Made by a program: the position numbers and the translations under genes. A stretch of DNA of 64,000 bases, taken from the IMG/VR virus record IMGVR_UViG_3300047567_000058, positions 80,405 to 144,404 of that record; one strand, written 5' to 3'. This document shows, one piece after another, positions 2,814 to 26,573 of this stretch. This DNA comes from a virus (lineage: Duplodnaviria > Heunggongvirae > Uroviricota > Caudoviricetes). A model generated the notes under the pieces. That model saw nothing but the letters and a program-made list of their open reading frames with translations, was not told the DNA's origin and did not search any database. How positions within the stretch are numbered: position 1 is the first letter of the stretch; each line of letters opens with the position of its first letter.

Positions 2814-2898
2814 TGGTGCGCGAAACTGGAGTTGAACCAGCATGCTTTTGGGGCAGCGGCTTCTGAGACCGCAGCGTATACCATTTCGCCATTCGCGC
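2814..2898 (-). tRNA. tRNA-Leu(CAG)
   Basis: Cloverleaf, loop CTCAGAA, long variable arm, encoded CCA. Confidence 0.93.
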
Positions 2899-2899
2899 A

Positions 2900-3312
2900 T
2901 GGTGGACCTGAGGGGAATCGAACCCCTGTCCGAAGGTTCCATCAAATAGTCACTACAGCTTGTTTGGCGTTTGTAATCACGGCGCATCTACGCCAACGGA
3001 ACTGACGCCGTGATAGCAATCGGCGATAACCGTTTTCCGTTCCCGTTTGCCATGGGACCGGAAGCGTCGGTCTTTTTGTGACGTCACTCCCCGCGTTGGA
3101 GACGTAAACAACGCGGATGACGTGCCATCGGTCCCGCAGGATCGACGAGCCCCAGACTAGCTGAGGTCTACGCCTTAGGCAGCGTAGGCATAGCTACGGC
3201 TTGCGCCGTAGTTATAATGATAACCGTTAGCGATTATTGGGCTTGGTGTATTAGGCTCACCGGGCCGCTGCGACTAAGATCTGGTCGCCTCCGTCAAAAC
3301 CTGGGCAGGCCC
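2900..3312 (-). ncRNA. ssrA: tmRNA; tag ANGYHYNYGASRSYAYAA*
   Basis: 5' GGGCCTG pairs with 3' CAGGTCC-A-CCA with G3.U70; T-arm GGTTCGATTCC; TTTGACGG near 5' end; ATAATC then GCT resume codon and an 18-codon tag ending YAYAA-TAA. Confidence 0.93.
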
Positions 3313-3658
3313 GACAGAGAATGGTTTGATGCGGTGTTTTCCTTCGCCGTCGTTTCCCTTCCGCAGAGCCTCAGCACGCCTTTGGCACTAGAATGTCGCC
3401 GGCGCACCTAGCTGTTTTTGCATGGAACCGAATAATTGATTTATGGACATCGATGCAGTCATATGCGGAGTTTTCTGAGCCAGTCCACGCCGTTTTACGA
3501 GCGCTCCTTGTGACTCAGCGTTCCGTGTTTTCTCACGGGGCTTGATCTCGGTTATCACGCCAAGAATCGGCCTGCCTTTGTGATATCGGCGCAGGCAATC
3601 GCGCCTAATCTGACCACCATCGGCCGTATCGCCGGCCGATGATGCAATCATTCGAAAT

Positions 3659-3735
3659 TGGTTGCGGGAGTGAGAGTCGAACCCACTATTTTCAGCTTAT
3701 GAGGCTGATAGGATACCCGGTTCCGTATACCCGCT
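3659..3735 (-). tRNA. tRNA-Met(CAT), initiator-like
   Basis: Loop CTCATAA; fMet-like acceptor (A)GCGGG/CCCGCA-A-CCA with 1:72 mismatch. Confidence 0.85.
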
Positions 3736-8965: not shown

Positions 8966-9053
8966 TGGCGGAAGGATAGGGGTTTGAACCCTAGAGGGAT
9001 TGCTCCCTGCCGGTTTTCAAGACCGGTGCCATCAACCACTCGGCCATCCTTCC
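8966..9053 (-). tRNA. tRNA-Ser(TGA)
   Basis: Loop CTTGAAA, long variable arm, G73-CCA. Confidence 0.93.
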
Positions 9054-9055
9054 AC

Positions 9056-9132
<77 letters not shown>

Positions 9133-9276: not shown

Positions 9277-9373
9277 TGGTAGTCGGGGCGGGACTTTAAC
9301 CCACATTCACTGATTGTATCAGCTTTTACATTCAATTATAAGTTGAACTCTCTAAACATTGAGATACCCGACT
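9277..9373 (-). tRNA. atypical tRNA-Ile(TAT)-like, 97 nt
   Basis: Acceptor AGTCGGG/CCCGACT-A-CCA; anticodon arm TTCAA-CTTATAA-TTGAA; long variable region; T-loop TTAAAGT. Confidence 0.6.
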
Positions 9374-9377
9374 ATGC

Positions 9378-9453
9378 TGGTGGAACTTAGGGGGATCGGA
9401 CCCCTGACCTCCTGCTTGCAAAGCAGGCGCTCTCCCGGCTGAGCTAAAGCCCC
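9378..9453 (-). tRNA. tRNA-Ala(TGC)
   Basis: G3.U70, loop TTTGCAA, T-loop TCCGATC. Confidence 0.92.
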
Positions 9454-9531
9454 ATTAAGGCAAGCTATTGAGGGCTTGCCATTACCCTGCGCGTTTCTCG
9501 GCCTTTTGGGGTACCGCCCCTCTGGCCGATC

Positions 9532-9605
9532 TGGAGCGAGATACGGGAATCGGACCCGCGTATTCACCTTGGAGGGGTGATGTTCTACCATTGAACAAAT
9601 CCCGC
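9532..9605 (-). tRNA. tRNA-Gly(TCC)
   Basis: Loop CCTCCAA (C33), U73-CCA. Confidence 0.88.
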
Positions 9606-9671
9606 GCGACACCCCTGGATGGGATCATAGATATTGTAGTATCTATTGCCGATTCCGTCCAGGGATTTATT

Positions 9672-10421
9672 TTATTTTTTCTTCGCAGCGAGGTATCCGC
9701 AGTTGCGGAGCGCCTGGGCGAAGCAGTCGCAGAAGACGCGGCGATACTTGTACATATTGCCATCGTTCTCATTGACTCTCATCACATGGACGAGCAGTTT
9801 GTCGATCTTGTCGTATTGGTTGCCCTTGGATCCCGGGAAGTGGATGTCCGCCGAATCGCTCCTCGAGACGCTGGATCCCATCTCGGTCGCCGGATCTCCG
9901 ACGAGAAGGATGTGGAAGGTGTCGCGATGATGGTATTTGGCCCCGGGATTGTCCGGAGCGGCTTTGATGATGCCGACGTACATCGTCGACGTTTGGCCGG
10001 CGATGGTCATCTTGACGTTGACCGAATTGGGGTCGCTCATCAAGGCGCTGTCTTTGTCGGCGTCGCGCTTGGCGTATTTGGAATGGATGATCTCCTGCTT
10101 GCTTGCGGCATGCGCCTTGGCGGCGTCCTCTTCGCTGCGGTCAGGGGTCTTATCCTCGAATTGGCCTTCCGGATCCTTGCCTTCGAGAAGCGTTTGCTGC
10201 GGCTGGGGATTGGCCTCAGCCGGAGCTGGCTTCGCCTCTTCTTCGAGGCGGTTGCGGATTTCGTGGTCGAGCTCGGACAGGGCGTTGATCGCCCCTAGGG
10301 CAGACACCGATTGCGCCTCGTTTGTCTGTTGGGCGTTAAGCTCGTATCTCTTGGCGGTCGTCATGGCTCCGATGAGAGCCAGGATCTCCGACACTTCTGT
10401 GGTCTTATTCATAAAATTCAT
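9672..10421 (-). CDS. hypothetical protein
   Basis: Track ORF 9672..10445; ATG 10421 has AAAGGA SD. Confidence 0.75.
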   Translation of the reverse strand: MNFMNKTTEVSEILALIGAMTTAKRYELNAQQTNEAQSVSALGAINALSELDHEIRNRLEEEAKPAPAEANPQPQQTLLEGKDPEGQFEDKTPDRSEEDAAKAHAASKQEIIHSKYAKRDADKDSALMSDPNSVNVKMTIAGQTSTMYVGIIKAAPDNPGAKYHHRDTFHILLVGDPATEMGSSVSRSDSADIHFPGSKGNQYDKIDKLLVHVMRVNENDGNMYKYRRVFCDCFAQALRNCGYLAAKKK

Positions 10422-10441
10422 TTGTCCTTTCTTCGGCGATG

Positions 10442-10699
10442 TCACGCGCCGGCTTTGCTGGTCTTCAATTCGCTGTTCGTGAAGTCGTAGTCGACGATGG
10501 CGTCGCCTCCGAACTTCTTGCGCAGCGCGCTGAGCTCAGCCAAAATGATGTCGATCTGCTGTTTGTACGCGTCATGATCAGGATCATCGCGCTCGTCGTC
10601 GACGCGCATGAACATCCTTGACAGATAATCGTACGCGTCATTGATGGTGAATTGAGCGATCTGTATGCACAGGTCTCTCTTGATTTCGGCTTTCTGCAT
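10442..10699 (-). CDS. hypothetical protein
   Basis: 85 aa ORF, GGAGG upstream. Confidence 0.7.
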   Translation of the reverse strand: MQKAEIKRDLCIQIAQFTINDAYDYLSRMFMRVDDERDDPDHDAYKQQIDIILAELSALRKKFGGDAIVDYDFTNSELKTSKAGA

Positions 10700-11287
10700 T
10701 CAGCGTCCATGATGACGTCCTCCGACCGACTCGGGGTTATCGGGTCCCATATCTTCTCGAATGTGCTTTCTATAGGCGAGAATTTATTGACGTAATCGCC
10801 GCTGTCAAGGCGATAGTTCCTATGAGGGGTGTCGCTCCACGTTAGCTTGCTGGCGTATTCGTGCTTGACGGATTTCTCATAGCAAGCTTTGCATATGTAC
10901 AAGACATACCCGCTCGTGATGTAAGACGACGGCTTTCCGCAAAGGGCGCACACCGATTCTGAGACGTCTTCGTATTTCATGACGATCTCCTCGGTTGCCT
11001 CATTGCCTCCGCTGTCATACCAGCAAAGCGTTCCGTATTTCTCTTTCACCTGCTCCACCTGGTACTTCTCCAGGAGCCCATCTTTCTTAAGCTGGGCTTT
11101 CAGCTCCTTGCAGAGCTTCACTCCGAATGCCTTTCGCCATCCGTCTGGGATGTCATCGAGGTACGTGTAGCGGTAGTCATGCTTTGCCAAAGCGTTGCCG
11201 CAATAATCTTCGGGAGGATGCAGAAACGGGAACCGTTTGATTAGGATGTAGTTCCCTGAGGATTTTAAAAATATTTTCCATGAACAT
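10700..11287 (-). CDS. hypothetical protein with CxxC (frameshifts near 11255 and 10743)
   Basis: SD GAAAGGA-ATG at 11287; removing one G at 11254-11256 gives MFMENIFKILRNYILIKRFP into track ORF; motif QVKEKYGTLCWY...CALCG. Confidence 0.6.
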
Positions 11288-11340
11288 TCCTTTCTAGTCA
11301 CAAGTATCATATATCGTTCATGCGCGATTTGCCAGAGATA

Positions 11341-11940
11341 TCAGATTTCGACGTTAAGAAGGGCTGTTGCGATAGCTGGGTTTTCCTGCTCTGACTTCGG
11401 GAAGGAAGCCACTATGCTTCGCAGAAGCCTTGCGCTTGTTGTGACGCTGCAGGTATGGATCTCTATCAGCTGAAGCTTGATATGGCTCGCATCCCATTTC
11501 TGGGCGCACTTGACGTATTCGTTGATGTCTGACGTTACTGAAAGAGTGAGCGGATCACTGTCCTTGATCCTCACTCCGAAGTCTATCGATGTGCGACAAG
11601 ACTTGGCAGTGATGCCGACGAACATGTCTATTTTGCAATTGGGGGCTTTTGGCGTTTCCATTATGATGTAGCTTTTGCAATTCCCAGGATTGGAAATGAT
11701 GAATTTGCTTGTCGCTGCGTCATAGGCATCTTTGACGGCTGGAATCATTGGAATGTATTCATCGGTAACAGCCGGAAATATCAAAACCGATGGCGATTTG
11801 CCGGAGATATCGATGTCGTTCTTAACAAGAATCATGTTATACGACTTGATCTTTCCGGTATCGATTTTGCCATCATGGAGCTTGACCATCCCGGCGATAT
11901 GCCAATCGTCTGGGCTGTTTTCCCATTTCCGATCTGACAT
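11341..11940 (-). CDS. hypothetical protein
   Basis: 199 aa ORF. Confidence 0.7.
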   Translation of the reverse strand: MSDRKWENSPDDWHIAGMVKLHDGKIDTGKIKSYNMILVKNDIDISGKSPSVLIFPAVTDEYIPMIPAVKDAYDAATSKFIISNPGNCKSYIIMETPKAPNCKIDMFVGITAKSCRTSIDFGVRIKDSDPLTLSVTSDINEYVKCAQKWDASHIKLQLIEIHTCSVTTSARLLRSIVASFPKSEQENPAIATALLNVEI

Positions 11941-12015
11941 TCACAAACGATTTTTGGCGATCGATCATGAAAAGGCCATTAGACTCGTTAGCCGTTCCAA
12001 TGTATCCTCGGTCGC

Positions 12016-12417
12016 TCATTTCTCGTCTTCCCAGGAAATCCCGCCGCCTGAGCAGTTTAGTTTCTTGAAATCCTCGAGTTTGTGCTTAAGGATATCTATT
12101 TCGGCATCGGCTCTCGTATTAGATTCGTTCTTTCTATTGATGGCATCATCGATCTCTTTCTGAATCTTGGAAATCACCGTTGAGGCATATCCTTGATCAG
12201 ACAACGCATTTATGTCTTGCTTTGATCCGCTGTATTCGAAATTGTAAAAATCTTCATTGATCGGGAATCTTCCGAATTCCAAAACATAGATGTCTGGTAA
12301 GTCTTCATCATATTCATGCTTATGTGCTGCTAAAACAGCATAAATCTTGTCGCATCCTCTCATCTCGTTGGTCTTAGTATTTTTGATGATGTCCATCTCA
12401 AATAGCCTTCTTTCCAC
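12016..12417 (-). CDS. hypothetical protein
   Basis: 133 aa ORF downstream of a sigma-A-like promoter. Confidence 0.7.
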   Translation of the reverse strand: MERRLFEMDIIKNTKTNEMRGCDKIYAVLAAHKHEYDEDLPDIYVLEFGRFPINEDFYNFEYSGSKQDINALSDQGYASTVISKIQKEIDDAINRKNESNTRADAEIDILKHKLEDFKKLNCSGGGISWEDEK

Positions 12418-12423
12418 GACGAA

Positions 12424-12452
12424 ATGATACCATGCCTAGGAGCGGAGGTCAA
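12424..12452 (-). promoter_or_regulatory. sigma-A/70-like promoter
   Basis: TTGACC-N17-TATCAT with TG extended -10. Confidence 0.65.
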
Positions 12453-12460
12453 TGCTGAGG

Positions 12461-12492
12461 AAAAAATAAAATAAACCCCCGATCTCTCGGGG
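12461..12492 (-). terminator. intrinsic terminator
   Basis: CCCCGA/TCGGGG hairpin then T-rich tract on minus strand. Confidence 0.6.
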
Positions 12493-12572
12493 ATCTATCT
12501 TGGCGAGAACTTTCCCAGCCTAGAGGTGGACCGAATACCGGCTGCACGAATGCTGTCTTCAGCCCAAACGAA

Positions 12573-12890
12573 TCACTTCAATCCATTCAGCTTTGTCTGA
12601 AGAGCTGCTTTCTTCTCGGCATAGTCTGAAGGTCCGACATGATAATGAGCGTAATCGTATTCAAGATCTGATAGCTGATTTTTGATGGCTTGGATGGCGT
12701 TGTCTTTGGCGGGGATGTGCGACTGGATCATCGGGGCCGGCTTTCCGCCATTCTTAGCTCTGGCTTCCTCGTCTTTCTTCGGGTCCCCGGTAGGATTCCA
12801 TCCTTCAAGGATGCAGACCTCTTCCCAGGTTATGTTGTCCGGATCGTATCCGGCGCTGATCATTTTAGCGCATCTTTCGTTGTATGTCAT
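12573..12890 (-). CDS. hypothetical late protein
   Basis: Track ORF trimmed to MTYNERCAK; AACA-N6-TA motif immediately upstream. Confidence 0.7.
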   Translation of the reverse strand: MTYNERCAKMISAGYDPDNITWEEVCILEGWNPTGDPKKDEEARAKNGGKPAPMIQSHIPAKDNAIQAIKNQLSDLEYDYAHYHVGPSDYAEKKAALQTKLNGLK

Positions 12891-12905
12891 AGCAACTATC
12901 CTCCG

Positions 12906-12918
12906 ATAATCTATTGTT
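12906..12918 (-). promoter_or_regulatory. AR9-type late promoter motif
   Basis: AACAATAGATTAT. Confidence 0.65.
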
Positions 12919-12943
12919 GCGGTCGTAAAAAAAGATCGGCCAG

Positions 12944-13309
12944 CTATTTGCCAACCGATCTTTGATACCTCTTGTAGAATCTGAAGCCGATTCTCTCGGC
13001 TTCGTCTTCTATGCCAGGCGATCTCAGGTCTAACCCTGAATTCGCCTGAACTGAATGCGTCAGCTCGTGCATCAGAAGATGCACTGAGTTGGCCATTGAG
13101 GTTTTCTCGATGTAGACGTCCAGGCCATCTATGGAGCGATATCCTGTGGTCTTCCATCCTTTGATAGGATGCGGAAACATCCTATTGAGCTTTCTCAACT
13201 CGACGACGTGAAGGCGGATGCCACCACGATCTATCTCATCAAGAAGCTCAGAGTATGCTTGATCGCTTGCTTTGCATAGCGATCTGCAGACGGACACGAC
13301 TTTGGTCAT
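12944..13309 (-). CDS. putative zincin-like metallopeptidase domain protein
   Basis: LLMHELTHSVQ (HExxH) plus downstream IEDEAE; SD GAAAGGAGG before ATG 13309. Confidence 0.5.
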   Translation of the reverse strand: MTKVVSVCRSLCKASDQAYSELLDEIDRGGIRLHVVELRKLNRMFPHPIKGWKTTGYRSIDGLDVYIEKTSMANSVHLLMHELTHSVQANSGLDLRSPGIEDEAERIGFRFYKRYQRSVGK

Positions 13310-13365
13310 GATCCATCCTCCTTTCTTCAATTAAATCATATATTTTCGAACTGCCCGTGATAACA

Positions 13366-13392
13366 AGAAAAGCCCAAGATATCTCTTGGGCT
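13366..13392 (-). terminator. terminator closing the main tRNA array
   Basis: AGCCCAAGA/TCTTGGGCT hairpin then TTTTCTT on minus strand. Confidence 0.75.
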
Positions 13393-13400
13393 ATTGTGTC

Positions 13401-13486
13401 TGGTGCCCTCGGCAGGACTTGAACCTGTACGACTTTGGATCACTGCCACCTCAAAGCAGCGCGTATACCAATTTCGCCACGAGGGC
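13401..13486 (-). tRNA. tRNA-Leu(GAG)
   Basis: Loop TTGAGGT, long variable arm, CCA. Confidence 0.92.
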
Positions 13487-13492
13487 ATAGAA

Positions 13493-13567
13493 TGGGAGGA
13501 CTCGTCGGTACTGACCCGGCTTTTTCCGATTCACAGTCGGATGCCTTACCTTTAGGCTAGAGTCCTC
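13493..13567 (-). tRNA. tRNA-His(GTG)
   Basis: Loop CTGTGAA, encoded G-1:C73; T-loop GTCAGTA. Confidence 0.85.
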
Positions 13568-13574
13568 ATCAGAA

Positions 13575-13649
13575 TGGTGGATCTACCGGGAATCGAACCC
13601 GGAACTTTGCCTTGCGGAAGCAGCGTTTTCCCCGTTGAACTACAGACCC
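13575..13649 (-). tRNA. tRNA-Ala(CGC)
   Basis: G3.U70, loop TCCGCAA (C33). Confidence 0.8.
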
Positions 13650-13652
13650 ATC

Positions 13653-13728
13653 TGGTCTTCGCGGATCGTGATGGTCGATCGGCCTTCCCCTCGTGAAGGG
13701 GACGCTCTCCCCGCTGAGCTACGCGAAG
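13653..13728 (-). tRNA. tRNA-Val(CAC)
   Basis: Loop TTCACGA; T-loop ACCATCA. Confidence 0.82.
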
Positions 13729-13734
13729 AAATAT

Positions 13735-13809
13735 TGGTGTCCGATGATCGTGACGATCGATCGACCTCTTCCATGTCAAGGAAGCGTTCTCCCGCTGAAC
13801 TAATCGGAC
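13735..13809 (-). tRNA. tRNA-Val(GAC)
   Basis: Loop TTGACAT; T-loop ATCGTCA. Confidence 0.85.
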
Positions 13810-13812
13810 AAA

Positions 13813-13887
13813 TGGTCCTGGTAGAGAGTGCTGGCCTCCCGACCTATCGGTTATCAGCCGATCGCTCTACCGCTGAGCTACACCAGG
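13813..13887 (-). tRNA. tRNA-Ile(GAT)
   Basis: Loop CTGATAA; T-loop GCCAGCA. Confidence 0.85.
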
Positions 13888-13893
13888 ATGTAA

Positions 13894-13969
13894 TGGTGTC
13901 CCAACCTGGATTTGAACCAGGACTGTACAGCTTCTAAGGCTGTCATCTCTGCCGTTGGATTATTGGGAC
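13894..13969 (-). tRNA. tRNA-Leu(TAG), short variable loop
   Basis: ACAGC-CTTAGAA-GCTGT, A73-CCA, no long arm. Confidence 0.8.
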
Positions 13970-13972
13970 AAA

Positions 13973-14047
13973 TGGTGCCTCCATTCCGATTCGGACGGGA
14001 ATCAGACGCTTACAAGACGCCCGCTCTTCCTACTGAGCTATAGAGGC
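13973..14047 (-). tRNA. tRNA-Thr(TGT)
   Basis: Loop CTTGTAA; T-loop TCCGAAT. Confidence 0.88.
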
Positions 14048-14050
14048 AAA

Positions 14051-14125
14051 TGGTACTCGATGCCGGGTTTGGACCGACGACCCGCCCCGTGTAAAGGGGC
14101 CGCTCTCCCGCTGAGCTAATCGAGC
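14051..14125 (-). tRNA. tRNA-Val(TAC)
   Basis: Loop TTTACAC; T-loop TCCAAAC. Confidence 0.9.
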
Positions 14126-14130
14126 AGATG

Positions 14131-14215
14131 TGGTGCTTGAGGCGGGATTCGGACCCGCAAGCCCTAAGGCGACGGATTTTAAGTCCGTTGCGTATACCGG
14201 TTCCGCCACTCAAGC
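14131..14215 (-). tRNA. tRNA-Leu(TAA)
   Basis: Loop CTTAAAA, long arm; T-loop TCCGAAT. Confidence 0.92.
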
Positions 14216-14233
14216 AATCGTGTTAGTATCGTA

Positions 14234-14309
14234 TGGTGCCGGGCCAGGGAATCGGACCCAATGGTTTGCCGCTTACGAGACGGCTGTTCTGCCACTGAAC
14301 TAGACCGGC
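14234..14309 (-). tRNA. tRNA-Thr(CGT)
   Basis: Loop CTCGTAA; T-loop TCCGATT. Confidence 0.9.
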
Positions 14310-14314
14310 GAATT

Positions 14315-14388
14315 TGGTAGCCGAGAGAAGAGTTGGACTTCCGTTCGACGCGTATGGGGCGTCTGTCCTACCGTTGAACGACTCGGCC
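14315..14388 (-). tRNA. tRNA-Met/Ile2(CAT)
   Basis: Loop CCCATAC (C33); T-loop TCCAACT; Met vs lysidine-Ile not resolvable by eye. Confidence 0.78.
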
Positions 14389-14395
14389 ATGCAAT

Positions 14396-14469
14396 TGGTG
14401 CCCTCACCCAGAGTCGGACTGAGACCTGATCCTTACCATGGATCCGTTCTGCCGTTTAACTACAAGGGC
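14396..14469 (-). tRNA. tRNA-Thr(GGT)
   Basis: Loop ATGGTAA; T-loop TCCGACT. Confidence 0.88.
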
Positions 14470-14472
14470 ATC

Positions 14473-14547
14473 TGGTGCTTCGACAGAGATTCGGACTCTG
14501 GACCCACGGGTTAAAAGCCCGCTGCTCTGCCGCTGAGCTATCGAAGC
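14473..14547 (-). tRNA. tRNA-Lys(TTT)
   Basis: Loop CTTTTAA; T-loop TCCGAAT. Confidence 0.92.
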
Positions 14548-14551
14548 AAAT

Positions 14552-14629
14552 TGGTCTCCCATAGAGGATTTGAACCCCTAACCTTATCGTCCGTGGCGAC
14601 ACGCTCTGATCCAGTTGAGCTAATGGGAG
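14552..14629 (-). tRNA. tRNA-Arg(ACG)
   Basis: Loop CCACGGA (C33). Confidence 0.88.
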
Positions 14630-14632
14630 ATG

Positions 14633-14708
14633 TGGTTCCCCTTCCACGTGTCGAGCGTGGCTATGCAGGATTCAAGGTCCTGTGGCTTGACCGCTTGCCT
14701 AAAGGGGA
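14633..14708 (-). tRNA. tRNA-Gln(TTG)
   Basis: U1-A72, loop CCTTGAA (C33); T-loop CTCGACA. Confidence 0.85.
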
Positions 14709-14714
14709 ATAAGT

Positions 14715-14788
14715 TGGCGGGCCTTAAGCGAGTCAGACGCTTGTTGTTCGGTTAACGGCCGAGCGCTCTATCGTTGAGCTAAAGACCC
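14715..14788 (-). tRNA. tRNA-Asn(GTT)
   Basis: Loop CCGTTAA (C33), G73; T-loop TCTGACT. Confidence 0.85.
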
Positions 14789-14902
14789 ATCTTGATGGGG
14801 AGGGCGCCTCAGCAGCCGCCCTCCCGTTATAATGGGATGCGATGGCGCGCATCCCCCGGAAGCGGACGCGTTACCGGCGCGCTCTTCCGACTAGAATTCT
14901 GA

Positions 14903-14976
14903 TGGCAGAGGTTGAAGGTGTCGGACCTCCGTTAGCGGTTTTGGGGACCGCCGTCCTACCGTTGGACTAAACCCCT
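14903..14976 (-). tRNA. tRNA-Trp(CCA)
   Basis: AGGGG start, loop CCCCAAA (C33), U11-A24; T-loop TCCGACA. Confidence 0.9.
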
Positions 14977-14978
14977 AG

Positions 14979-15054
14979 TGGTTCCCCTTCCACGTGTCGA
15001 GCGTGGCTATGCGAAGTTCAGAGCTTCGTGGCTTAGCCGCTTGCCTAAAGGGGA
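14979..15054 (-). tRNA. tRNA-Gln(CTG)
   Basis: Loop CTCTGAA; near-copy of Gln(TTG). Confidence 0.87.
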
Positions 15055-15060
15055 ATGTGA

Positions 15061-15136
15061 TGGTGATCGCTGCGCGTGTCGATCGCGCTGATATAGGAGT
15101 GAAAATCCCATGGCTTTGCCGATTGCCTAAGCGACC
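15061..15136 (-). tRNA. tRNA-Glu(TTC)
   Basis: Loop TTTTCAC; T-loop ATCGACA. Confidence 0.85.
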
Positions 15137-15138
15137 AT

Positions 15139-15213
15139 TGGTGATCCCATGAGGTGCCTGCCCTCGATCTCCGGGTTGAGAACCCGGCGAACAATACGCT
15201 GTTCTATGGGACC
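15139..15213 (-). tRNA. tRNA-Glu(CTC)
   Basis: CCGGG-TTCTCAA-CCCGG; degenerate T-loop GCAGGCA. Confidence 0.75.
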
Positions 15214-15265
15214 ATATCGTATCGGATCGGATCGTCGCGGGGAATTTATTTTTTATTTCCCGTTT

Positions 15266-15353
15266 TGGCAGAGGGCGCAGGAGTCGAACCCGCCCAGGAT
15301 GCTGTCCTTCGTCGCGCCTCAGACGCGATGCCTTGCCGCTCGGCCAGCCCTCT
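15266..15353 (-). tRNA. tRNA-Ser(TGA), second copy
   Basis: Loop TCTGAGG (C33, G37), long arm, G73. Confidence 0.78.
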
Positions 15354-15358
15354 ACAAA

Positions 15359-15445
15359 TGGCAGTGGGTGCAGGAGTCGAACCCGCTCGCGGTTTCCCGT
15401 TCGTCGGCTTTCGAAGCCGATACCTTGCCGTTCGGTCAACCCACT
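15359..15445 (-). tRNA. tRNA-Ser(CGA)
   Basis: Loop TTCGAAA, long arm. Confidence 0.9.
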
Positions 15446-15449
15446 ATAA

Positions 15450-15525
15450 TGGTCGTGATGTAGGGCTTCGATCCCTCATTCCGTGCTCCCAAGGCACGTG
15501 TCCTGCCGAATTAGACGACATCACG
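15450..15525 (-). tRNA. tRNA-Pro(TGG)
   Basis: C1-G72, loop CTTGGGA; T-loop ATCGAAG. Confidence 0.88.
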
Positions 15526-15529
15526 ATGA

Positions 15530-15616
15530 TGGCGGAGGATGTTGGGGTCGAACCAACTCCGGAGTTACCCGCTACCTGTTTAGCGAACAGGCCTCTTGCC
15601 GTTTGAGTAATCCTCC
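15530..15616 (-). tRNA. tRNA-Ser(GCT)
   Basis: Loop TCGCTAA (C33), long arm. Confidence 0.9.
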
Positions 15617-15623
15617 ACATGAA

Positions 15624-15705
15624 TGGTGCTTGCTCAGGGACTCGGACCCTGAAGGTTTCCCGGCGGATTTTGAGTCCGCTGCGTCTTCCATTGCGCCAAG
15701 CAAGC
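15624..15705 (-). tRNA. tRNA-Leu(CAA)
   Basis: Loop CTCAAAA; T-loop TCCGAGT. Confidence 0.92.
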
Positions 15706-15708
15706 ATC

Positions 15709-15784
15709 TGGCGCCCAAGAGAGGATTCGAACCTCTGCCTGAAGCTTTAGAGGAACTTCCGTCTGTCCGCTGGCTTACTTGGGC
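15709..15784 (-). tRNA. tRNA-Arg(TCT), second copy (alternative register CTA)
   Basis: Best stem AAGTT/AGCTT gives loop CCTCTAA; a shifted register shows CTCTAAA. Confidence 0.65.
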
Positions 15785-15786
15785 AT

Positions 15787-15863
15787 TGGCCCCGACGCTA
15801 GGATTCGAACCTAGAACCTGCTCTTTAGGGGAGAGCCGATCTTGTCCATTGATCTACGTCGAG
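15787..15863 (-). tRNA. tRNA-Arg(CCT)
   Basis: GCTCT-CCCCTAA-AGAGC (C33). Confidence 0.85.
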
Positions 15864-15877
15864 AATCTGATAGTAAT

Positions 15878-15952
15878 TGGTGCCCCCTCGGGGATTCGGA
15901 CCCCGGACCCACGGTTTAAGAGACCGCTGCTCTGCCGCTGAGCTAAGGAGGC
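15878..15952 (-). tRNA. tRNA-Lys(CTT)
   Basis: Loop CTCTTAA; T-loop TCCGAAT. Confidence 0.92.
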
Positions 15953-15956
15953 ATAT

Positions 15957-16035
15957 TGGTCGGGCTGACAGGATTCGAACCTGCGATGTCTTGCTCCCGA
16001 AGCAAGCGCCGTAGTCCAAGCTGGGCCACAGCCCG
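15957..16035 (-). tRNA. tRNA-Pro(CGG)
   Basis: Loop TTCGGGA. Confidence 0.92.
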
Positions 16036-16039
16036 ATGA

Positions 16040-16128
16040 TGGCAGAGACTACAGGAGTCGGACCTGCTCGCGATGTTGATCGCTCGATCGGCTTCCAACC
16101 GATTGCCTTACCGTTCGGCCAAGTCTCT
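16040..16128 (-). tRNA. tRNA-Ser(GGA)
   Basis: Loop TTGGAAG, long arm; T-loop TCCGACT. Confidence 0.88.
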
Positions 16129-16132
16129 ACAT

Positions 16133-16207
16133 TGGTGGAACTTGAGGGATTTGAACCCTCGACATCCTCCATGCCATGGAGGCGCTCTCCCACTGAGCTA
16201 AAGCCCC
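16133..16207 (-). tRNA. tRNA-Ala(GGC)
   Basis: G3.U70, loop ATGGCAT. Confidence 0.92.
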
Positions 16208-16214
16208 ATTGAAT

Positions 16215-16289
16215 TGGTGGGCCCCGCTGCGTTTGAATCAGCTTCTGGTGATTTTCAGTCACCCACACTACCGCATGTGTTAGAGACCC
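16215..16289 (-). tRNA. tRNA-Phe(GAA)
   Basis: Loop CTGAAAA. Confidence 0.88.
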
Positions 16290-16293
16290 ATAT

Positions 16294-16368
16294 TGGCGGT
16301 GACATCCGGGGACGATCCGGAACCGCTCGCGTGACAGGCGAGCATCATAGCCGTTAGACCATGCCACC
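16294..16368 (-). tRNA. tRNA-Asp(GTC)
   Basis: Loop CTGTCAC, G73; T-loop ATCGTCC. Confidence 0.88.
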
Positions 16369-16372
16369 GTAT

Positions 16373-16446
16373 TGGAGCTGGCAACGGGTGTCGGACCCGT
16401 GCAGGCTGTCTGGCGGACAGCCGTCATACCGTTTGACCATGCCAGC
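16373..16446 (-). tRNA. tRNA-Gly(GCC)
   Basis: Loop CCGCCAG (C33), U73; T-loop TCCGACA. Confidence 0.85.
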
Positions 16447-16449
16447 ATC

Positions 16450-16524
16450 TGGAGCAAGTGACGGGTGAACGATCCCGTGTCACCGGCTTGGGAAGCCGGC
16501 ATACTGCCGTTGTACTACACTTGC
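16450..16524 (-). tRNA. tRNA-Gly(CCC)
   Basis: Loop TTCCCAA, U73; 8-nt T-loop ATCGTTCA. Confidence 0.85.
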
Positions 16525-16530
16525 ATATAT

Positions 16531-16613
16531 TGGTGCCCACTGATGGACTCGAACCACCGAACCCGAAGGAGCTGATTTACAGTCAGCCGTCGTTGCCACT
16601 GGACCAAGTGGGC
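16531..16613 (-). tRNA. tRNA-Tyr(GTA)
   Basis: Loop CTGTAAA, long arm. Confidence 0.93.
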
Positions 16614-16617
16614 ATAT

Positions 16618-16692
16618 TGGAGGTTCGTCTCCGTGTCGAGCGGAGTCGTGTCAGGGTTGCGACCTGATGCGTTCCCGTTTCGCCAACGAACC
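16618..16692 (-). tRNA. tRNA-Cys(GCA)
   Basis: Loop TCGCAAC (C33), U73; T-loop CTCGACA. Confidence 0.87.
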
Positions 16693-16823
16693 ACGAGAAA
16701 TAATTTTTATTTTCCGGCTAAGGAAAAGGATTCCTTGCTGGCAGACTGAATCTGATCAGCCTTGTGTATTTATACCCCGCGGGCTAGAGTCCGCGATTGC
16801 TTACTGATTATCGGAGTCAGGGC

Positions 16824-20534: not shown

Positions 20535-22118
20535 TTATTTTTTATTTTCCTGATCGGCCTTGGCCTTGGCGGCTTCGGCTTGCTCCTTTAGGATCTCAGG
20601 CTGCTCGGAGAAGTATCCGCCTTCGTGAATGGTCACGAACGGGGTCATCACCGAGCTTGTCCCAGGATCTCCAGCCGAAGCGTTGACCAGAGACAATCTT
20701 CCTGTGTAGCTCGGATGAAGGTCTCGCTGGGTGATCGACACGCTCTTGCTTAGAGCCTGCGGGCCTCTGAACGTCACTTTCAGGAACGCGCTGAACAGAT
20801 TCATCTCGTTGGTGGCGTTGTAGTATCGCAGCAATTCTCCGGTGACCAGCTTCTTGATGATGAACATCGGCGTCAGGCCAGAGAAGATCTTCTCCAATGT
20901 CTGAACGTTGCGGGTAGGCTGGTTGATGACCTTGAAGATCTGTTGGCTGAAGTAGGATCTCAGCGGATAGAAGATGTACTCATACAGACGGATTCTCTTG
21001 TTGTCGAGATTCTGAGAGTCGCTGTTGAACAGCGTCTGGAAGTTGAACATGAGATATCTGATGATGCAGAATATGTCTTTCTTGTCTTCTTCCGCGATCG
21101 GCATCGTCCTCTGAGTGGCGGAGTCGATCAATCTTCCGAGCGAGACATAAACCGCTTTGACTTTCTCGAAGCGTTTGAACGCATCGGTAAGTTTGCTGAA
21201 GAAGCCGGCGGTCTTGTCAACCCAGAACCACGGAGAGGTCATATCGTCATAAGTGAAGAACAGTTTCTTTTTCTTGACGTCGGACTTCGAGCCGAGGATC
21301 ATGCCAAGAACGATCTTGGTTTTCTGATCGGACAGGTCTGACGCTTTCACCGATAAGAACACTCCGTCTTTCTTGTCTGATCTCAGGCAGAACACCTCTC
21401 GTCCGTCGCCCATCACGGATTCGGCGGTTGGACCGAATTTGAAGTCGACACCCAAGAAGTCCGTCATCTTCTTGATGATGCTCGGATCCTTATAGGCTTC
21501 GAACACCGCGAAGTCATCGAATGCCGAGATGCCTTTGGCGTCAAGCGACTCCAACGCGTATCTCGTCATGAAGTAATATAGCGGAGAGACTCTCTTTGAG
21601 AACAGCAGCGCGTCATACACGGGTATGCGCTCGACCACGGTTCCGGTCATCTCGGCTTTGGCATCCATCATCCCATCGAAGATGAGGGTGATAGGCATGA
21701 GCAGCGATTTGATCGACACGCCGTTTTCGGTGCTGTAGGAAAGATTGTCGACGATCTGATAGATCGGGAAGAATCTGACTGATTCGTTCTCATAGAAGCA
21801 ATCGTCCAAAAGCTTGTTGACGAAGATGAATCTGTCGATAGGCTTGTCGCGGCCTTTGATGTCGACGATGTAGTGAATGCGATCGAATCGGCTCTCGGTG
21901 ATAGGCTTGTAATAATGCCCTTGAGATCGGATAGGTCCGAATGACTCTTCGTCGGTTTCCAGCGTGACGGATCGGACTTTGATCTCAGGGAGAATCTCGA
22001 GGGACTTGAAGATGTCCTCGATATACACGACGTTCTCATCCTTTGAACGAGATAAAATAAAATCGTGGTTGAATCTCTCTGGGTTTGAATCAGAATACGC
22101 TGCTAGAAGATTTTGCAT
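20535..22118 (-). CDS. phage multisubunit RNAP beta subunit, N-terminal half (probably non-virion RNAP)
   Basis: QRDLHPSYTGRLSLVNASAGDPGTSSVMTP matches beta RDVHPSHYGR..TPEGPNIG; 527 aa, similar in size to phiKZ gp123-type halves. Confidence 0.8.
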   Translation of the reverse strand: MQNLLAAYSDSNPERFNHDFILSRSKDENVVYIEDIFKSLEILPEIKVRSVTLETDEESFGPIRSQGHYYKPITESRFDRIHYIVDIKGRDKPIDRFIFVNKLLDDCFYENESVRFFPIYQIVDNLSYSTENGVSIKSLLMPITLIFDGMMDAKAEMTGTVVERIPVYDALLFSKRVSPLYYFMTRYALESLDAKGISAFDDFAVFEAYKDPSIIKKMTDFLGVDFKFGPTAESVMGDGREVFCLRSDKKDGVFLSVKASDLSDQKTKIVLGMILGSKSDVKKKKLFFTYDDMTSPWFWVDKTAGFFSKLTDAFKRFEKVKAVYVSLGRLIDSATQRTMPIAEEDKKDIFCIIRYLMFNFQTLFNSDSQNLDNKRIRLYEYIFYPLRSYFSQQIFKVINQPTRNVQTLEKIFSGLTPMFIIKKLVTGELLRYYNATNEMNLFSAFLKVTFRGPQALSKSVSITQRDLHPSYTGRLSLVNASAGDPGTSSVMTPFVTIHEGGYFSEQPEILKEQAEAAKAKADQENKK

Positions 22119-23664: not shown

Positions 23665-24336
23665 TCATTTCCGCTTTGTCTTAAACGGATTCGCGGATTT
23701 AGTATTCGACGATGTCATAGTCGGCTTCGGCTTCGTCCTGGGAGTGCAGAATTCGGATGGCTTAAGGCCATACGCTTTCTTTCTGGCATTCTCATAGACA
23801 TCGAATCCGCAGCCATAGTCATTGTAGCCATAGCAGCAATCGCAGCCATGCAGCTCTTTGGTGATGTTATCGACGCTGTTAGGATCGCCGCTGCATGACG
23901 AGAACACGTATCTGCCGATCGGGGCGTACGTCACATGCTCCGATATCTTGTTGCCTATCGTTATCTCAGTATGGTTCATCGTGGCCAGAATGGCGTAGTT
24001 CTTGCCAAGGCAATACATTAGGACGAGGAATCTTCCGGTTTCACGCCTTCCCGTGCTTCCGGATTCCCTGAATTCAAACACTCTGTATTTGTTGGTGCTC
24101 ACGAGAAAGTGATCCCATTTGCCAGTGCTCTGAGAGCTGTTGAGACCGGTGACGATGACTGACCCAGATCCCATGAGATTGTACCCATGGCATTCGTATG
24201 CCACGCCGTTAGACAGATCGTACTTCACGCCGTTAAACGACGCATGCTCATATCGAGCAAGGCTATGCATGCATTCTTTGACTGACTTCCAGTTCACGCC
24301 GCTTAACTGGCTTGGCTGGTTGTTCTGTGTCTTCAT
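23665..24336 (-). CDS. unknown RT-adjacent protein with Cys/Tyr/Gly-rich C-terminal segment
   Basis: 223 aa ORF with GGAAGGA SD; ends 26 nt before the RT start; SSCSG...HGCDCCYGYNDYGCGF. Confidence 0.75.
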   Translation of the reverse strand: MKTQNNQPSQLSGVNWKSVKECMHSLARYEHASFNGVKYDLSNGVAYECHGYNLMGSGSVIVTGLNSSQSTGKWDHFLVSTNKYRVFEFRESGSTGRRETGRFLVLMYCLGKNYAILATMNHTEITIGNKISEHVTYAPIGRYVFSSCSGDPNSVDNITKELHGCDCCYGYNDYGCGFDVYENARKKAYGLKPSEFCTPRTKPKPTMTSSNTKSANPFKTKRK

Positions 24337-24390
24337 GACTTGTCCTTCCCGGGAAAAATAAATAATTTCCCTAACTGTTTCGTATACATT

Positions 24391-24420
24391 TAAAAAGCCT
24401 TGAGTTATTGGCTCAAGGCT
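24391..24420 (-). terminator. intrinsic terminator-like hairpin after RNAP beta-C
   Basis: AGCCTTGAG/CTCAAGGCT then TTTTA. Confidence 0.7.
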
Positions 24421-24473
24421 GGCTAGTAGGATTAACGTCTTCCTAGCTTCACTGGAATCATATATCCCCAGCG

Positions 24474-26573
24474 CTATTTTTGAGAAGACAGCTCTTCGTC
24501 ATCGACGGCCAGATCAAGGATCTCGAGATACTTGTCCAAGGTCTTGCGGTTGATGTTCTTGTCGCCGGACATCTTGATGGAAACGTTCATCGGATCCTCG
24601 GATTCAAGCAAAGCCTTGATAAGGGCTTCTCTGTCTGCCGGGGAAGATGACGTCTCGCGGAGCTCTTTGGCGACGATGTCGCCTCGCTTCGTTAGCATCA
24701 GGTTGTCAGTCTCCATCTCGCCTAGACGAATCGGGGTGGAAGCGACCAGCTGGCGTTTGTCCTTCTTGAGGTTGGACTTTGACGGCAGATCGCGAATGTT
24801 GAGTATGGAGGCCGAGCGCGCGCTTGATTTGTTGGCAGGCTCATGCTTCAATCTGATGAAGTACATGTCGCCGAGCACCATCTTGCGCTCGATGCCTTTC
24901 ATATTGTAGAGGCTGCACCATTCCGGATGCTTCTCGAAGATGTCGACGAATTGCTGCATCGTCGTGTTTCCGAAGAACGGAGGCTGATGGATGTAGATGC
25001 CATTGTCCTCGATGTCCTTGATGAATTCCTCTTTCTTGGCGCGGCTCATCGTCGCGTACCGAGAATAGAAGAAGTCATATTCGGTTTTATTGATGGACTT
25101 CATGTAGTCGAACAAGACGTCCGCTTTGGCTCCGAGGTTATCCAATCCCTTCATGATCTTAACGACATGATCGGACATGAAGTTGATATGCTGCTCTTGG
25201 ATCTGAGCGAGATTGAGACGGTTGATGATGCCTAAGCTGTTCAGGCACACATCGGCTCTGACTCCGTCTTCGGTCATCGGCATCTTGTCATCGTCTTCGA
25301 TGAGGGAAACGACGCCTTTGTTGCCGTATCTTCCGGAAAGCTTTGACCCCGGAACAAGAGGATTCTCTTTGAGGATCGTGAAGGTCATCTTAAACCCATC
25401 GAAGACTCTCTGATCATCCTTCCACTTGATATCCGGATCGATGTACTCATGGGCTTTCTTCCAATAGAATCCAAGCTCGTCGGTGTACTGATTCGGATTG
25501 AGTCTCTTAGGAAGCGGATGCTTATACGAAGCCCCGTATTCCTTCTTCTCGGCCTCGTAGGCTTTCTTCTCGGCGGCGGTCATGCCGTTGATAAGCTGGC
25601 GTTCCGTCGCGACCGGGATGACTTTCTCGAGAGCGTGCGCCAATTCGGTGTAGTAGGAATTCTGCTCCTCGATCACCTTCGACGCCTCTTTGCAGAAGTC
25701 GTTCTTGCCGGACTTGAGCTTATCGAGGTCGACGTTCGAGCAGATATCGATGTCAACGACTTTGCCGCCGTTGGTGTAGATGATCTGATCGCTGTCTTCG
25801 TCGATGCGTCTCATGCGGTCCGACTGGAAGTTATAAAGAACGTTTCGGTTGTTCTCGCGGCGCAGTGCCACAAGGACATGCTCCCCGGTCATATCGCCGA
25901 CTTCGGGGAACGACTTATAGGTGGTTTCATCGCCATACAGATTGAGCATGACGTCGATGGTGCTTACCATGACGGTTGTTTGCTCGACCTTGTAAGAGGT
26001 AAGCTTCTCAGCCGCTGATTTGCTGATGACGATCGCGTCCTCGAACGTGCGATTGAGATATGGGATGAAAACCGCTTTGAGGTTGACTCCATACCCATAG
26101 CATCCGTTGTCGAGATAGTTCGACGTCTTGTAAATCGTCGATCCTTCCTTAACGGTGTCGCCAACCGAATTAGGCTTGACGCAATCGATGAACGCGGCGC
26201 CATAGTCTTCGGTGATATGATCAGCCGCGCGGATATGGATGATGTCATACACCTTGGATTTGGTGTATTGGACGATCAAGTCATAATTAAGCTGATTCTT
26301 GGCGATCTTGTCGATGATGACGAAATCCTCTTTGGCCTTCTTGCATGCGACCGAGTATTCGCCGACCTGGTTTTCGAAATTGGTGAAGACCTTCGGATAT
26401 TCAGGGGAGACGAGATGGACGAACTGGCTGAGATGATTCGAGAACATGTTAATGCGCTGCGTGTCGCAGCAGTTATCACGGGGGACCAAGAGCTCTTCAG
26501 TAAGGAAATAATGAGGGTTGCCCTTATTGTCGCTCTTATGGAAATCGAAGTATGTCTTTTGATCTTTGCTCAT
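24474..26573 (-). CDS. phage multisubunit RNAP beta subunit, C-terminal half (probably non-virion RNAP)
   Basis: GSKLSGRYGNKGVVS, NSLGIINRLN, YFIRLKHEPANK, RLGEME correspond to conserved beta segments; 699 aa. Confidence 0.92.
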   Translation of the reverse strand: MSKDQKTYFDFHKSDNKGNPHYFLTEELLVPRDNCCDTQRINMFSNHLSQFVHLVSPEYPKVFTNFENQVGEYSVACKKAKEDFVIIDKIAKNQLNYDLIVQYTKSKVYDIIHIRAADHITEDYGAAFIDCVKPNSVGDTVKEGSTIYKTSNYLDNGCYGYGVNLKAVFIPYLNRTFEDAIVISKSAAEKLTSYKVEQTTVMVSTIDVMLNLYGDETTYKSFPEVGDMTGEHVLVALRRENNRNVLYNFQSDRMRRIDEDSDQIIYTNGGKVVDIDICSNVDLDKLKSGKNDFCKEASKVIEEQNSYYTELAHALEKVIPVATERQLINGMTAAEKKAYEAEKKEYGASYKHPLPKRLNPNQYTDELGFYWKKAHEYIDPDIKWKDDQRVFDGFKMTFTILKENPLVPGSKLSGRYGNKGVVSLIEDDDKMPMTEDGVRADVCLNSLGIINRLNLAQIQEQHINFMSDHVVKIMKGLDNLGAKADVLFDYMKSINKTEYDFFYSRYATMSRAKKEEFIKDIEDNGIYIHQPPFFGNTTMQQFVDIFEKHPEWCSLYNMKGIERKMVLGDMYFIRLKHEPANKSSARSASILNIRDLPSKSNLKKDKRQLVASTPIRLGEMETDNLMLTKRGDIVAKELRETSSSPADREALIKALLESEDPMNVSIKMSGDKNINRKTLDKYLEILDLAVDDEELSSQK

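Follow-up and report, generated by a model that had tools for sequence, protein, structure and literature searches.

Few nucleotides in biology are as conserved as T54, pseudouridine 55 (Psi55) and U33 of transfer RNA (tRNA), whose two U-turns have U33 and Psi55 as their uridines. Escape of phage tRNAs through mutation of the anticodon loop is established (van den Berg et al. 2023, PMC10264068; T5 tRNA-Lys against PARIS, PMC11464382; T5 tRNA-Tyr against retron PtuAB, PMC11555353), and the first of these studies concerns the anticodon loop only, with the T-loop, D-loop and U33 unmentioned. CbCash, a Schlafen nuclease reported in 2026 that is switched on by signalling of type III CRISPR (clustered regularly interspaced short palindromic repeats), cuts mainly in the T-loop directly 5' of U55 and in anticodon loops too, loses its activity when U54 or U55 is changed, and was left by its authors with the open question of whether phage tRNAs are targets (PMC13462974). 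The contact-dependent growth inhibition (CDI) toxin CdiA-CT(E479) cleaves between T and Psi (PMC9086364). Here we describe the 45 tRNA genes in a 64,000-nucleotide stretch of viral DNA (the window; bases 80405-144404 of the 201-kb IMG/VR virus record IMGVR_UViG_3300047567_000058, which is 78% complete), a complete natural decoding set from which T54, Psi55 and U33 are mostly absent as a combination.

This set follows the same logic as the phage tRNAs that evade anticodon nucleases, in that loop positions read by a defence nuclease are altered while decoding is retained. In the evading tRNAs the changes lie in the anticodon loop of a single species and resistance was tested, whereas here they lie at 54, 55 and 58, in the D-loop and at 33 across most of 45 genes and are known from sequence alone. 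Loop-altered phage tRNAs are known, but a T-loop and elbow version that runs across a whole decoding set is not. Cash and CdiA-CT(E479) read exactly the nucleotides that are rewritten in this phage, and CbCash is said to recognise the U-turn, to which both U33 and U55 belong; these enzymes would be the presumed enemy and not the thing found. Since T-loop nucleases are known and escape through the anticodon loop is established, selection for escape from tRNases that read the T-loop or U-turn is the best-fitting account of the pattern, and we favour it tentatively. Ribonucleases recognising either feature, such as the Cash Schlafen nuclease, which cyclic tetra-adenylate (cA4) switches on, or toxins of the CdiA-CT(E479) type, would have driven the replacement in this lineage of exposed, protein-read loop uridines (T54, U55, many D-loop uridines and, independently, U33). 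The elbow would have been preserved through compensating changes, and translation of phage genes would continue after the host tRNAs had been cut.

T-loops of the 45 tRNA genes

The set comprises 41 tRNA genes and a transfer-messenger RNA (tmRNA) called by ARAGORN and four more tRNA genes called by Rfam; Val-CAC, two Gln, Ser-UGA (15266) and Cys are ARAGORN calls with no Rfam counterpart. All 45 genes lie on the minus strand, all encode CCA, and between them all 20 amino acids are served. They are predicted to form the four-stem cloverleaf of Rfam RF00005, and about 40 of them score 35-67 bits against its gathering threshold of 29 bits. Across the whole record, tRNA genes occur only in the window.

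The original prediction counted 17 T-loops with TTC, 15 with T54-C55 and 13 with other sequences, and the combined ARAGORN and Rfam set reproduces that count in full. The T54-C55 group consists of 13 TCC loops among the ARAGORN calls, Met with TCCAACT and Asn with TCTGACT, and the loops singled out earlier are present as named (TCCGAAT in both Lys, Leu-UAA and Thr-UGU; TCCGACA in Trp and Gly-GCC). The 13 remaining loops are ATC in five genes, CTC in three, and ACCATCA, GCCAGCA, GTCAGTA, GCAGGCA and TTAAAGT. By position, 55 is T in 27 genes and C in 18; 54 is T in 33, A in six, C in three and G in three; 56 is C in 42, A in two and T in one; 58 is A in 38, T in four and G in three; and 33 is T in 32 and C in 13. 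The canonical pattern of TTC followed by A58 is broken by non-TTC in 28/45 genes, by non-T54 in 12/45 and by non-A58 in 7/45, and positions 33, 54, 55, 56 and 58 are all canonical in only 11/45. U54 or U55, each of which CbCash requires, is replaced in 28/45 genes. C predominates at position 59, and A is frequent at position 60 (11 genes).

Departures at 33 and 55 are exclusively from U to C. The D-loops have moved in the same sense, with 13% U against 25% in relatives (p=8e-6), 16% C against 8%, and 15 loops that have no U at all. As the buried U8 is unchanged, the shift hits exposed loop uridines, which are sites of 5-methyluridine (m5U), pseudouridine and dihydrouridine, together with U33.

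The genes and the signals that bound them are arranged as follows, all on the minus strand.

2814..3734, minus: Leu-CAG (2814-2898), tmRNA (2900-3312, T-loop TTCGATT) and Met-CAU (3663-3734), all with canonical T-loops
8966..9132, minus: Ser-UGA (8966-9053) and Arg-UCU (9056-9132), fully canonical (TTC, U33)
9277..9605, minus: small cluster of Ile-UAU, Ala-UGC (TCCGATC) and Gly-UCC (TCCGATT, also C33), called by ARAGORN
13371..13392, minus: hairpin terminator, 9 nt past the last tRNA of the main array, with a 9-bp stem (5 G-C) and then TTTCTTGTT
13401..16692, minus: main array of 38 tRNAs, from Cys-GCA (first) to Leu-GAG (last), with spacers mostly of 2-15 nt
13816-13887, minus: Ile-GAU, Rfam only, missed by ARAGORN at its default threshold
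14318-14388, minus: Met-CAU, Rfam only, T-loop TCCAACT
16693..16716, minus: A/T-only island GGAAAATAAAAATTATTTC, a candidate start signal, whose end is 7 nt short of the main array's first tRNA

The earlier placement of all 45 genes at 9277-16692 holds for 41 of them; the other four (2814-2898, 3663-3734, 8966-9053 and 9056-9132) lie upstream, and these four and the tmRNA have canonical T-loops. The anticodons of Ser-UGA and Arg-UCU at 8966..9132 recur in the main array with rewritten loops. Within the main array the T-loops divide into 13 with TTC, 13 with T54-C55 and 12 others.

Structural compensation in the variant genes

A conserved core surrounds the rewritten positions, comprising U8 (45/45), G18 (45/45), a purine at 57 (45/45), G19 (42/45) and the G53-C61 pair (42/45), and 37 of the 45 T-stems are perfectly paired, which bears out the earlier description of mostly intact T-stems. 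Pair 19-56 is G-C in 42 genes, U-A in two and A-U in one (Fisher p=7e-5), such that each of the three genes without C56 carries the matching base 19 (A19-U56 in Asn; U19-A56 in Glu-CUC and Ile-UAU). A base other than A58 is found only alongside a base other than T54 (7/12 versus 0/33, p=2e-5), and the pairs 54-58 in the non-T54 genes are A54-U58 in four, G54-G58 in three, C54-A58 in three and A54-A58 in two. Among class I tRNAs, C55 is associated with a minimal D-loop of 7 nt (11/15 versus 4/19, p=0.005), and the same association is seen in unrelated phages (13/28 versus 98/396, p=0.02). The co-variation that the original prediction had proposed looking for in the D-loop is found at 19-56, at 54-58 and in D-loop length. 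The C55 genes are mutually mostly 75% alike or less and differ in their T-stems, and so are not recent copies of each other; Ala-UGC has 80-83% identity to the canonical-loop Ala-UGC genes of relatives. To judge from these features, the tRNA genes are real and not decaying, and their fold is under selection. The following genes illustrate the range of altered loops.

13653..13887, minus: Val-CAC (ACCATCA) and Val-GAC (ATCGTCA), both with A54-U58, and Ile-GAU (GCCAGCA, G54-G58, C55)
14473..14547, minus: tRNA-Lys(UUU), the top tRNA score of the window (67 bits) despite C55; T-loop TCCGAAT, D-loop AGCGGCA of 7 nt with no U
14715..14788, minus: tRNA-Asn(GUU) (Rfam, 14718-14788) with C55, U56 and also C33; T-loop TCTGACT, D-loop AACGATA, compensated A19-U56
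15139..15213, minus: tRNA-Glu(CUC) (Rfam, 15142-15213) with G54, C55, A56 and G58; T-loop GCAGGCA, D-loop AGCGTAT, compensated U19-A56 and G54-G58
16294..16524, minus: Asp-GUC (ATCGTCC, A54-U58), Gly-GCC (TCCGACA, C55, C33) and Gly-CCC (ATCGTTC, A54-U58)

The T-stem of Gly-CCC pairs perfectly only when its loop is read as 8 nt. The tRNA-Ile(UAU) of this phage (9277-9373, minus strand) is unusual in its own right as a class-II-like isoleucine tRNA, being 97 nt long; its extra arm is long, its body is AT-rich, and it has the T-loop TTAAAGT and a compensated U19-A56 pair.

Some of these solutions have parallels elsewhere. The T-loop of the eukaryotic initiator tRNA has A54, A60 and an A54-m1A58 pair and keeps the initiator out of elongation (see also PMC10602860). 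The phage genes resemble it in the change of T54 to A with a rebuilt 54-58 pair, including A54-A58 in two tRNAs; they differ in that the phage variants are elongators for many different amino acids, carried by a virus of bacteria. Phage T5 (NC_005859) likewise has a large tRNA cluster, in which TTC is kept in 22/23 and U33 in all real tRNAs. Its tRNA-Ile(GAU) (L352, record 28210-28286), with T-loop TTTAAAT and D-loop AGCGATCTA, has the same A19-U56 compensation as tRNA-Asn of the present phage.

These features bear directly on whether the variant genes could be decaying or unexpressed pseudogenes, with only the 17 canonical genes at work, which we find scarcely credible. Rfam scores are indeed below those of relatives (35-67 versus up to 77 bits), and four genes were missed by ARAGORN at its default threshold. 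Against this, the cloverleaves are intact, with CCA in 45/45 and 37/45 perfect T-stems, the tertiary pairs are compensated, and the genes are tightly packed in one unit with a terminator. Furthermore, Asn, Asp, Cys, Gln, Glu, Gly, His, Ile, Lys, Thr, Trp and Val are served by variants alone, and the set would be incomplete without them. The proposal that unexpressed pseudogenes might account for the pattern therefore fails on the intact stems and core and the compensated tertiary pairs. Exact multi-tRNA contigs over parts of the array are present in three metatranscriptome runs, where DNA carry-over is possible; all four runs examined consist of contigs, which carry no expression level, mature ends or strand and are uninformative for the parts they leave uncovered, and we read them as a weak sign that the array is transcribed.

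Those same contigs speak to a second possibility, that RNA editing from C to U (or from C to Psi) restores U33 and U55 after transcription. Editing of tRNA has precedents in TrcP, which acts at C32 in Vibrio cholerae, and CDAT8, which acts at C8 in archaea, and the change at 33 and 55 is always from U to C, the sole change that a deaminase could reverse. The RNA-library contigs 14131-14400, 13798-14007 and 16163-16397, which span C55 genes, carry the genomic C, at low depth and perhaps from DNA or precursor. No domain of the dCMP/cytidine deaminase fold (PF00383, dCMP_cyt_deam_1), TruB_N or PolyA_pol was found in the 201-kb record at its 78% completeness, which leaves editing short of both the deaminase and the TruB domain. 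Nor would editing account for A, C and G at 54, the changes at 58 or the compensated 19-56 pairs. The editing activity suggested by the original prediction is accordingly very unlikely.

Relatives, composition and variant loops elsewhere

The RNA-polymerase beta subunit of the phage shares 36% identity with its counterpart in Bacillus phage AR9/PBS1, which identifies the record, at the level of protein similarity, as a distant AR9-type jumbo phage. The nearest relatives found, G001 (55% identity in the RNA-polymerase subunit) and G002 (50%), carry 24 and 29 tRNAs in syntenic arrays, in which TTC is kept by 21/24 and 28/29 and U33 by all but one tRNA each. In a comparison set of AR9-like loci fetched irrespective of their tRNAs (64 distinct tRNAs), C55 occurs in 0/64 against 18/45 in this phage (Fisher p=1e-8) and non-TTC loops in 3/64 against 28/45 (p=3e-11). 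The suggested comparison with related phage tRNAomes thus finds canonical relatives, and by these counts the T-loop pattern is beyond chance. No closer relatives came from single-protein scans of viral contigs, for which two flanking proteins served as queries; P0034, an '86%' homologue, and other P0001 contigs were considered as independent relatives and rejected as the same phage at 97% DNA identity. This same phage, with two indels in the array, is the only closer relative found. A DNA search with the array against cultured phages returned only short single-tRNA matches. Genome GC (guanine plus cytosine) is 49.9% in this phage (G000) against 26-30% in its nearest relatives, and 26-34% over L001, L002, L081 and L082, a very large compositional shift within one phage group.

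Variant T-loops also occur outside this group. A pattern consisting of a common D-arm followed by GTCCGA, which records occurrence only and not frequency, has at least 114 matching stretches in viral contigs and, on the bacterial side, at least 120 in genomes, and the results that follow hold among the matches listed. Other phages usually have one or two C55 tRNAs per array, and the co-resident tRNAs of matched phage loci are 5.6% C55, 4.9% non-T54 and 7.6% C33. Non-T54 is found in 27/556 tRNAs of phage loci versus 1/179 of bacterial loci; the bacterial co-resident tRNAs have C33 in 3/179 and are 94% TTC. The alleles TCCGA, ATCGT, ATCGA, CTCGA and ATCAT recur in unrelated phage arrays, two of which are heavily changed (L136 with 13/31 non-TTC and L094 with 6/16). 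C55 does not rise across GC bins in other phages (3.5, 6.9, 2.9 and 5.9%), whereas C33 does rise with GC. The bacterial C55 tRNAs are chromosomal, mainly Gly-GCC, Thr-GGU and Thr-CGU, and come from Bacteroidales, Treponema, Clostridiales and Bifidobacterium. The richest C55 bacterial genome among those sampled, a Treponema metagenome-assembled genome (G006; L273, L322-L351), has C55 in 4/31 tRNAs (Phe, Tyr, Thr-GGU and Thr-UGU, with Phe and Tyr the sole genes in the sample) and neither C33 nor non-T54. No phage tRNA of the present set is more than 87% identical to any fetched bacterial or viral C55 tRNA.

A tRNA-Ile(UAU) of gut phages, sampled with a pattern blind to the T-loop (L090, L095 and about 116 further viral loci), provides a direct view of both alleles: C55 is present in 73 and U55 in about 44 of the 118 matches listed (62% C55), with TCCGATT in 72, TTCGATA in 21, TTCGGTT (G58) in 13 and others besides, and C55 and U55 stand on identical backbones. 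C55 is, on this sequence evidence, compatible with long-term function. It is also not unique, occurring sporadically in unrelated phages and on some bacterial chromosomes, and is less special than the first reading of this locus assumed; natural bacterial tRNAs that cannot carry Psi55 seem to be under-reported. Bacterial chromosomal T54-C55 tRNAs and the C55 tRNAs of other phages share the TCCGA loop and a normal cloverleaf with this phage, and other phages' variant tRNAs share its A54-U58 and C54 loops as well. The difference is one of degree: bacteria have 1-4 C55 genes per genome (at most 13%) and other phages 5-6% of co-resident tRNAs, against 40% C55 and 62% non-TTC here. A recurrent and apparently undescribed trait reaches its extreme in this phage.

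The compositional shift offers an explanation without any enemy nuclease, in which selection on the loops is relaxed, the identity of loop uridines is near-neutral, and U drifts to C under compositional pressure wherever the fold tolerates it. Phage tRNAs serve one infection cycle and may not need m5U54, Psi55 or dihydrouridine, and occasional damaging changes would be repaired by compensating mutations. This is the main rival to nuclease escape, and we take it seriously without thinking it probable. It accords with the rise in GC and with the D-loops, in which U falls from 25% to 13% as C goes from 8% to 16%, with the rise of C33 with GC in other phages, and with the patchy coverage, 17 TTC loops being left and C33 and C55 being independent. 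C55 is also tolerated in the sole Phe and Tyr tRNAs of the Treponema genome and, across many bacteria, in Gly-GCC and Thr-GGU, which points the same way, as does the coexistence of C55 and U55 on identical backbones in the gut-phage tRNA-Ile(UAU). It fits less well with C55 in other phages without a GC rise, with the many changes that do not raise GC (A54 in six genes, A60 in 11, G19-C56 to U-A or A-U) and with the integrity of the other invariant positions, which would make the relaxation oddly specific. Non-T54 is about eight times commoner in phage than in bacterial loci, and high-GC bacteria retain U33, U54 and U55. GC pressure as a full explanation was rejected for C55, which shows no GC trend in other phages, but not for C33.

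The bacterial occurrences raise the further possibility that the host, perhaps a gut or wastewater member of the Bacillota, shares the non-canonical T-loops and that the phage simply follows it. Wastewater is the source of the metagenome contigs and sequencing runs that contain the phage, and its AR9-type relatives and strong GGAGG ribosome site are a weak lead to Bacillota as host. Chromosomal C55 tRNAs do exist in many bacteria (at least 120 stretches), and several of the isoacceptors are also C55 in the phage. No sampled bacterial genome, however, comes near the phage's share, the maximum being the 4/31 without C33 or non-T54 described above, so that the suggestion that host tRNAs have the same loops fails on this sample. 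Co-resident bacterial tRNAs are 94% TTC, the 87% ceiling on identity to fetched C55 tRNAs holds here too, relatives with other hosts are canonical, and within the phage TTC is retained by the tmRNA as well as by the four upstream tRNAs. We consider host mimicry quite unlikely.

Escape from tRNases that read the T-loop or U-turn draws on several observations. The change is position-specific, with U55 kept in 27/45 and U54 in 33/45 against 45/45 for U8, G18, R57 and CCA; variant alleles are shared with unrelated phages, and non-T54 is enriched in phage over bacterial loci; C55 in other phages is independent of GC; and the main array is bounded by an upstream AT island and a terminator. We infer that the selection comes from a nuclease, that these tRNAs are aminoacylated and serve in translation, and that cleavage is blocked by C55 or by a base other than U54. 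A number of findings weigh on the other side. TTC is kept by 17 tRNAs, including the only Phe and Tyr genes, so that a general T-loop nuclease would still halt translation. C33 does not track C34, as the 'UC' motif of CbCash would have it, with U33 present in 11/15 C34 tRNAs, and C33 and C55 are independent (C55 in 5/13 versus 13/32, p=1.0). No nuclease can be placed in the host, and no Schlafen domain (SLFN_AlbA_2) was found in the phage's own 201-kb record, which is incomplete as noted. U55C differs from the substitutions tested on Cash, and a block by this change is conjecture. The lineage has gone from about 28% to 50% GC, which favours U-to-C change at weakly constrained sites; C55 in chromosomal bacterial tRNAs indicates that it can persist without phage-specific pressure; and the only closer relative found is the same phage, which gives no independent view of conservation. 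The proposal that one selective pressure acts on both 33 and 55 is plausible in that both are U-turn bases and a nuclease reads both loops; against it, C33 and C55 are independent, and in other phages only C33 rises with GC.

A broader reading, that T-loop rewriting is a general and undescribed phage counter-defence in which the whole set is 'orthogonal' at its U-turn bases and T54, strikes us as rather doubtful. A tRNase would then kill host tRNAs and spare those of the phage, and could be the host's (Cash/Schlafen or a toxin) or the phage's own shut-off nuclease. If this were true, the phage would be the most complete natural example, and the C55/U55 polymorphism of the gut-phage tRNA-Ile(UAU) would show that arms race under way. 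If nuclease escape holds, phage-tRNA counter-defence extends from the anticodon loop to the T-loop, and the 2026 question of the Cash authors on phage tRNA targeting would be answered. Should the tRNAs be functional, they reveal to what extent the 'invariant' T-loop can be dispensed with and by what compensations the elbow is maintained (A54-U58, G54-G58, U19-A56 and, with C55, short D-loops). The variant loops are ready substrates for tests with T-loop nucleases, TruB and TrmA, and, in synthetic biology, possible building blocks for tRNAs that resist nucleases or do not depend on modification.

Neighbouring features and further observations

A second A/T island lies within the main array at about 15237-15256. 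Searches of the array gaps for further degenerate tRNAs found none at E up to 1. Between tRNA-Trp and tRNA-Asn, the array contains a GC-rich spacer of 114 nt (14789-14902, minus strand) with two strong hairpins, GGGATGCG...CGCATCCC and GGGAGGGCG...CGCCCTCCC, and no tRNA or Rfam match; it may be a small structured RNA set free by tRNA processing. Sub-threshold matches to the Rfam model of the Plastid-ycf2 5' untranslated region at 9058-9132, 13577-13649 and 15626-15705 (plus strand) lie opposite tRNA genes and are almost certainly an artefact of tRNA-like content in the model. The 19 open reading frames around and between the arrays have no significant Pfam match (one is sub-threshold, DUF2207/7TM), and their sole PHROG match is 'polymerase', at 20535-22118.

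The high-GC phage arrays L136 (2399-5952) and L094 (4387-7221) encode no CCA and have the loops TCCGA, ATCATTC, ATCGTTG and CTCGACT; the L136 array has no informative match among cultured phages, and the distribution of these loops suggests that the rewritten T-loops in the two arrays are convergent. Among bacteria, tRNA-Gly(GCC) with TCCGA recurs in genomes of Bacteroidales, Prevotella, Treponema, Fibrobacter and Clostridiales. The contig L085, from a second strain of this phage, is near-identical to the window over 11 kb, with 281 of 302 differences falling in the last 1.7 kb (24000-25718), in the RNA-polymerase beta gene, which looks like a recombinant patch; its reverse-transcriptase gene encodes 284 aa, against 475 aa in the phage.

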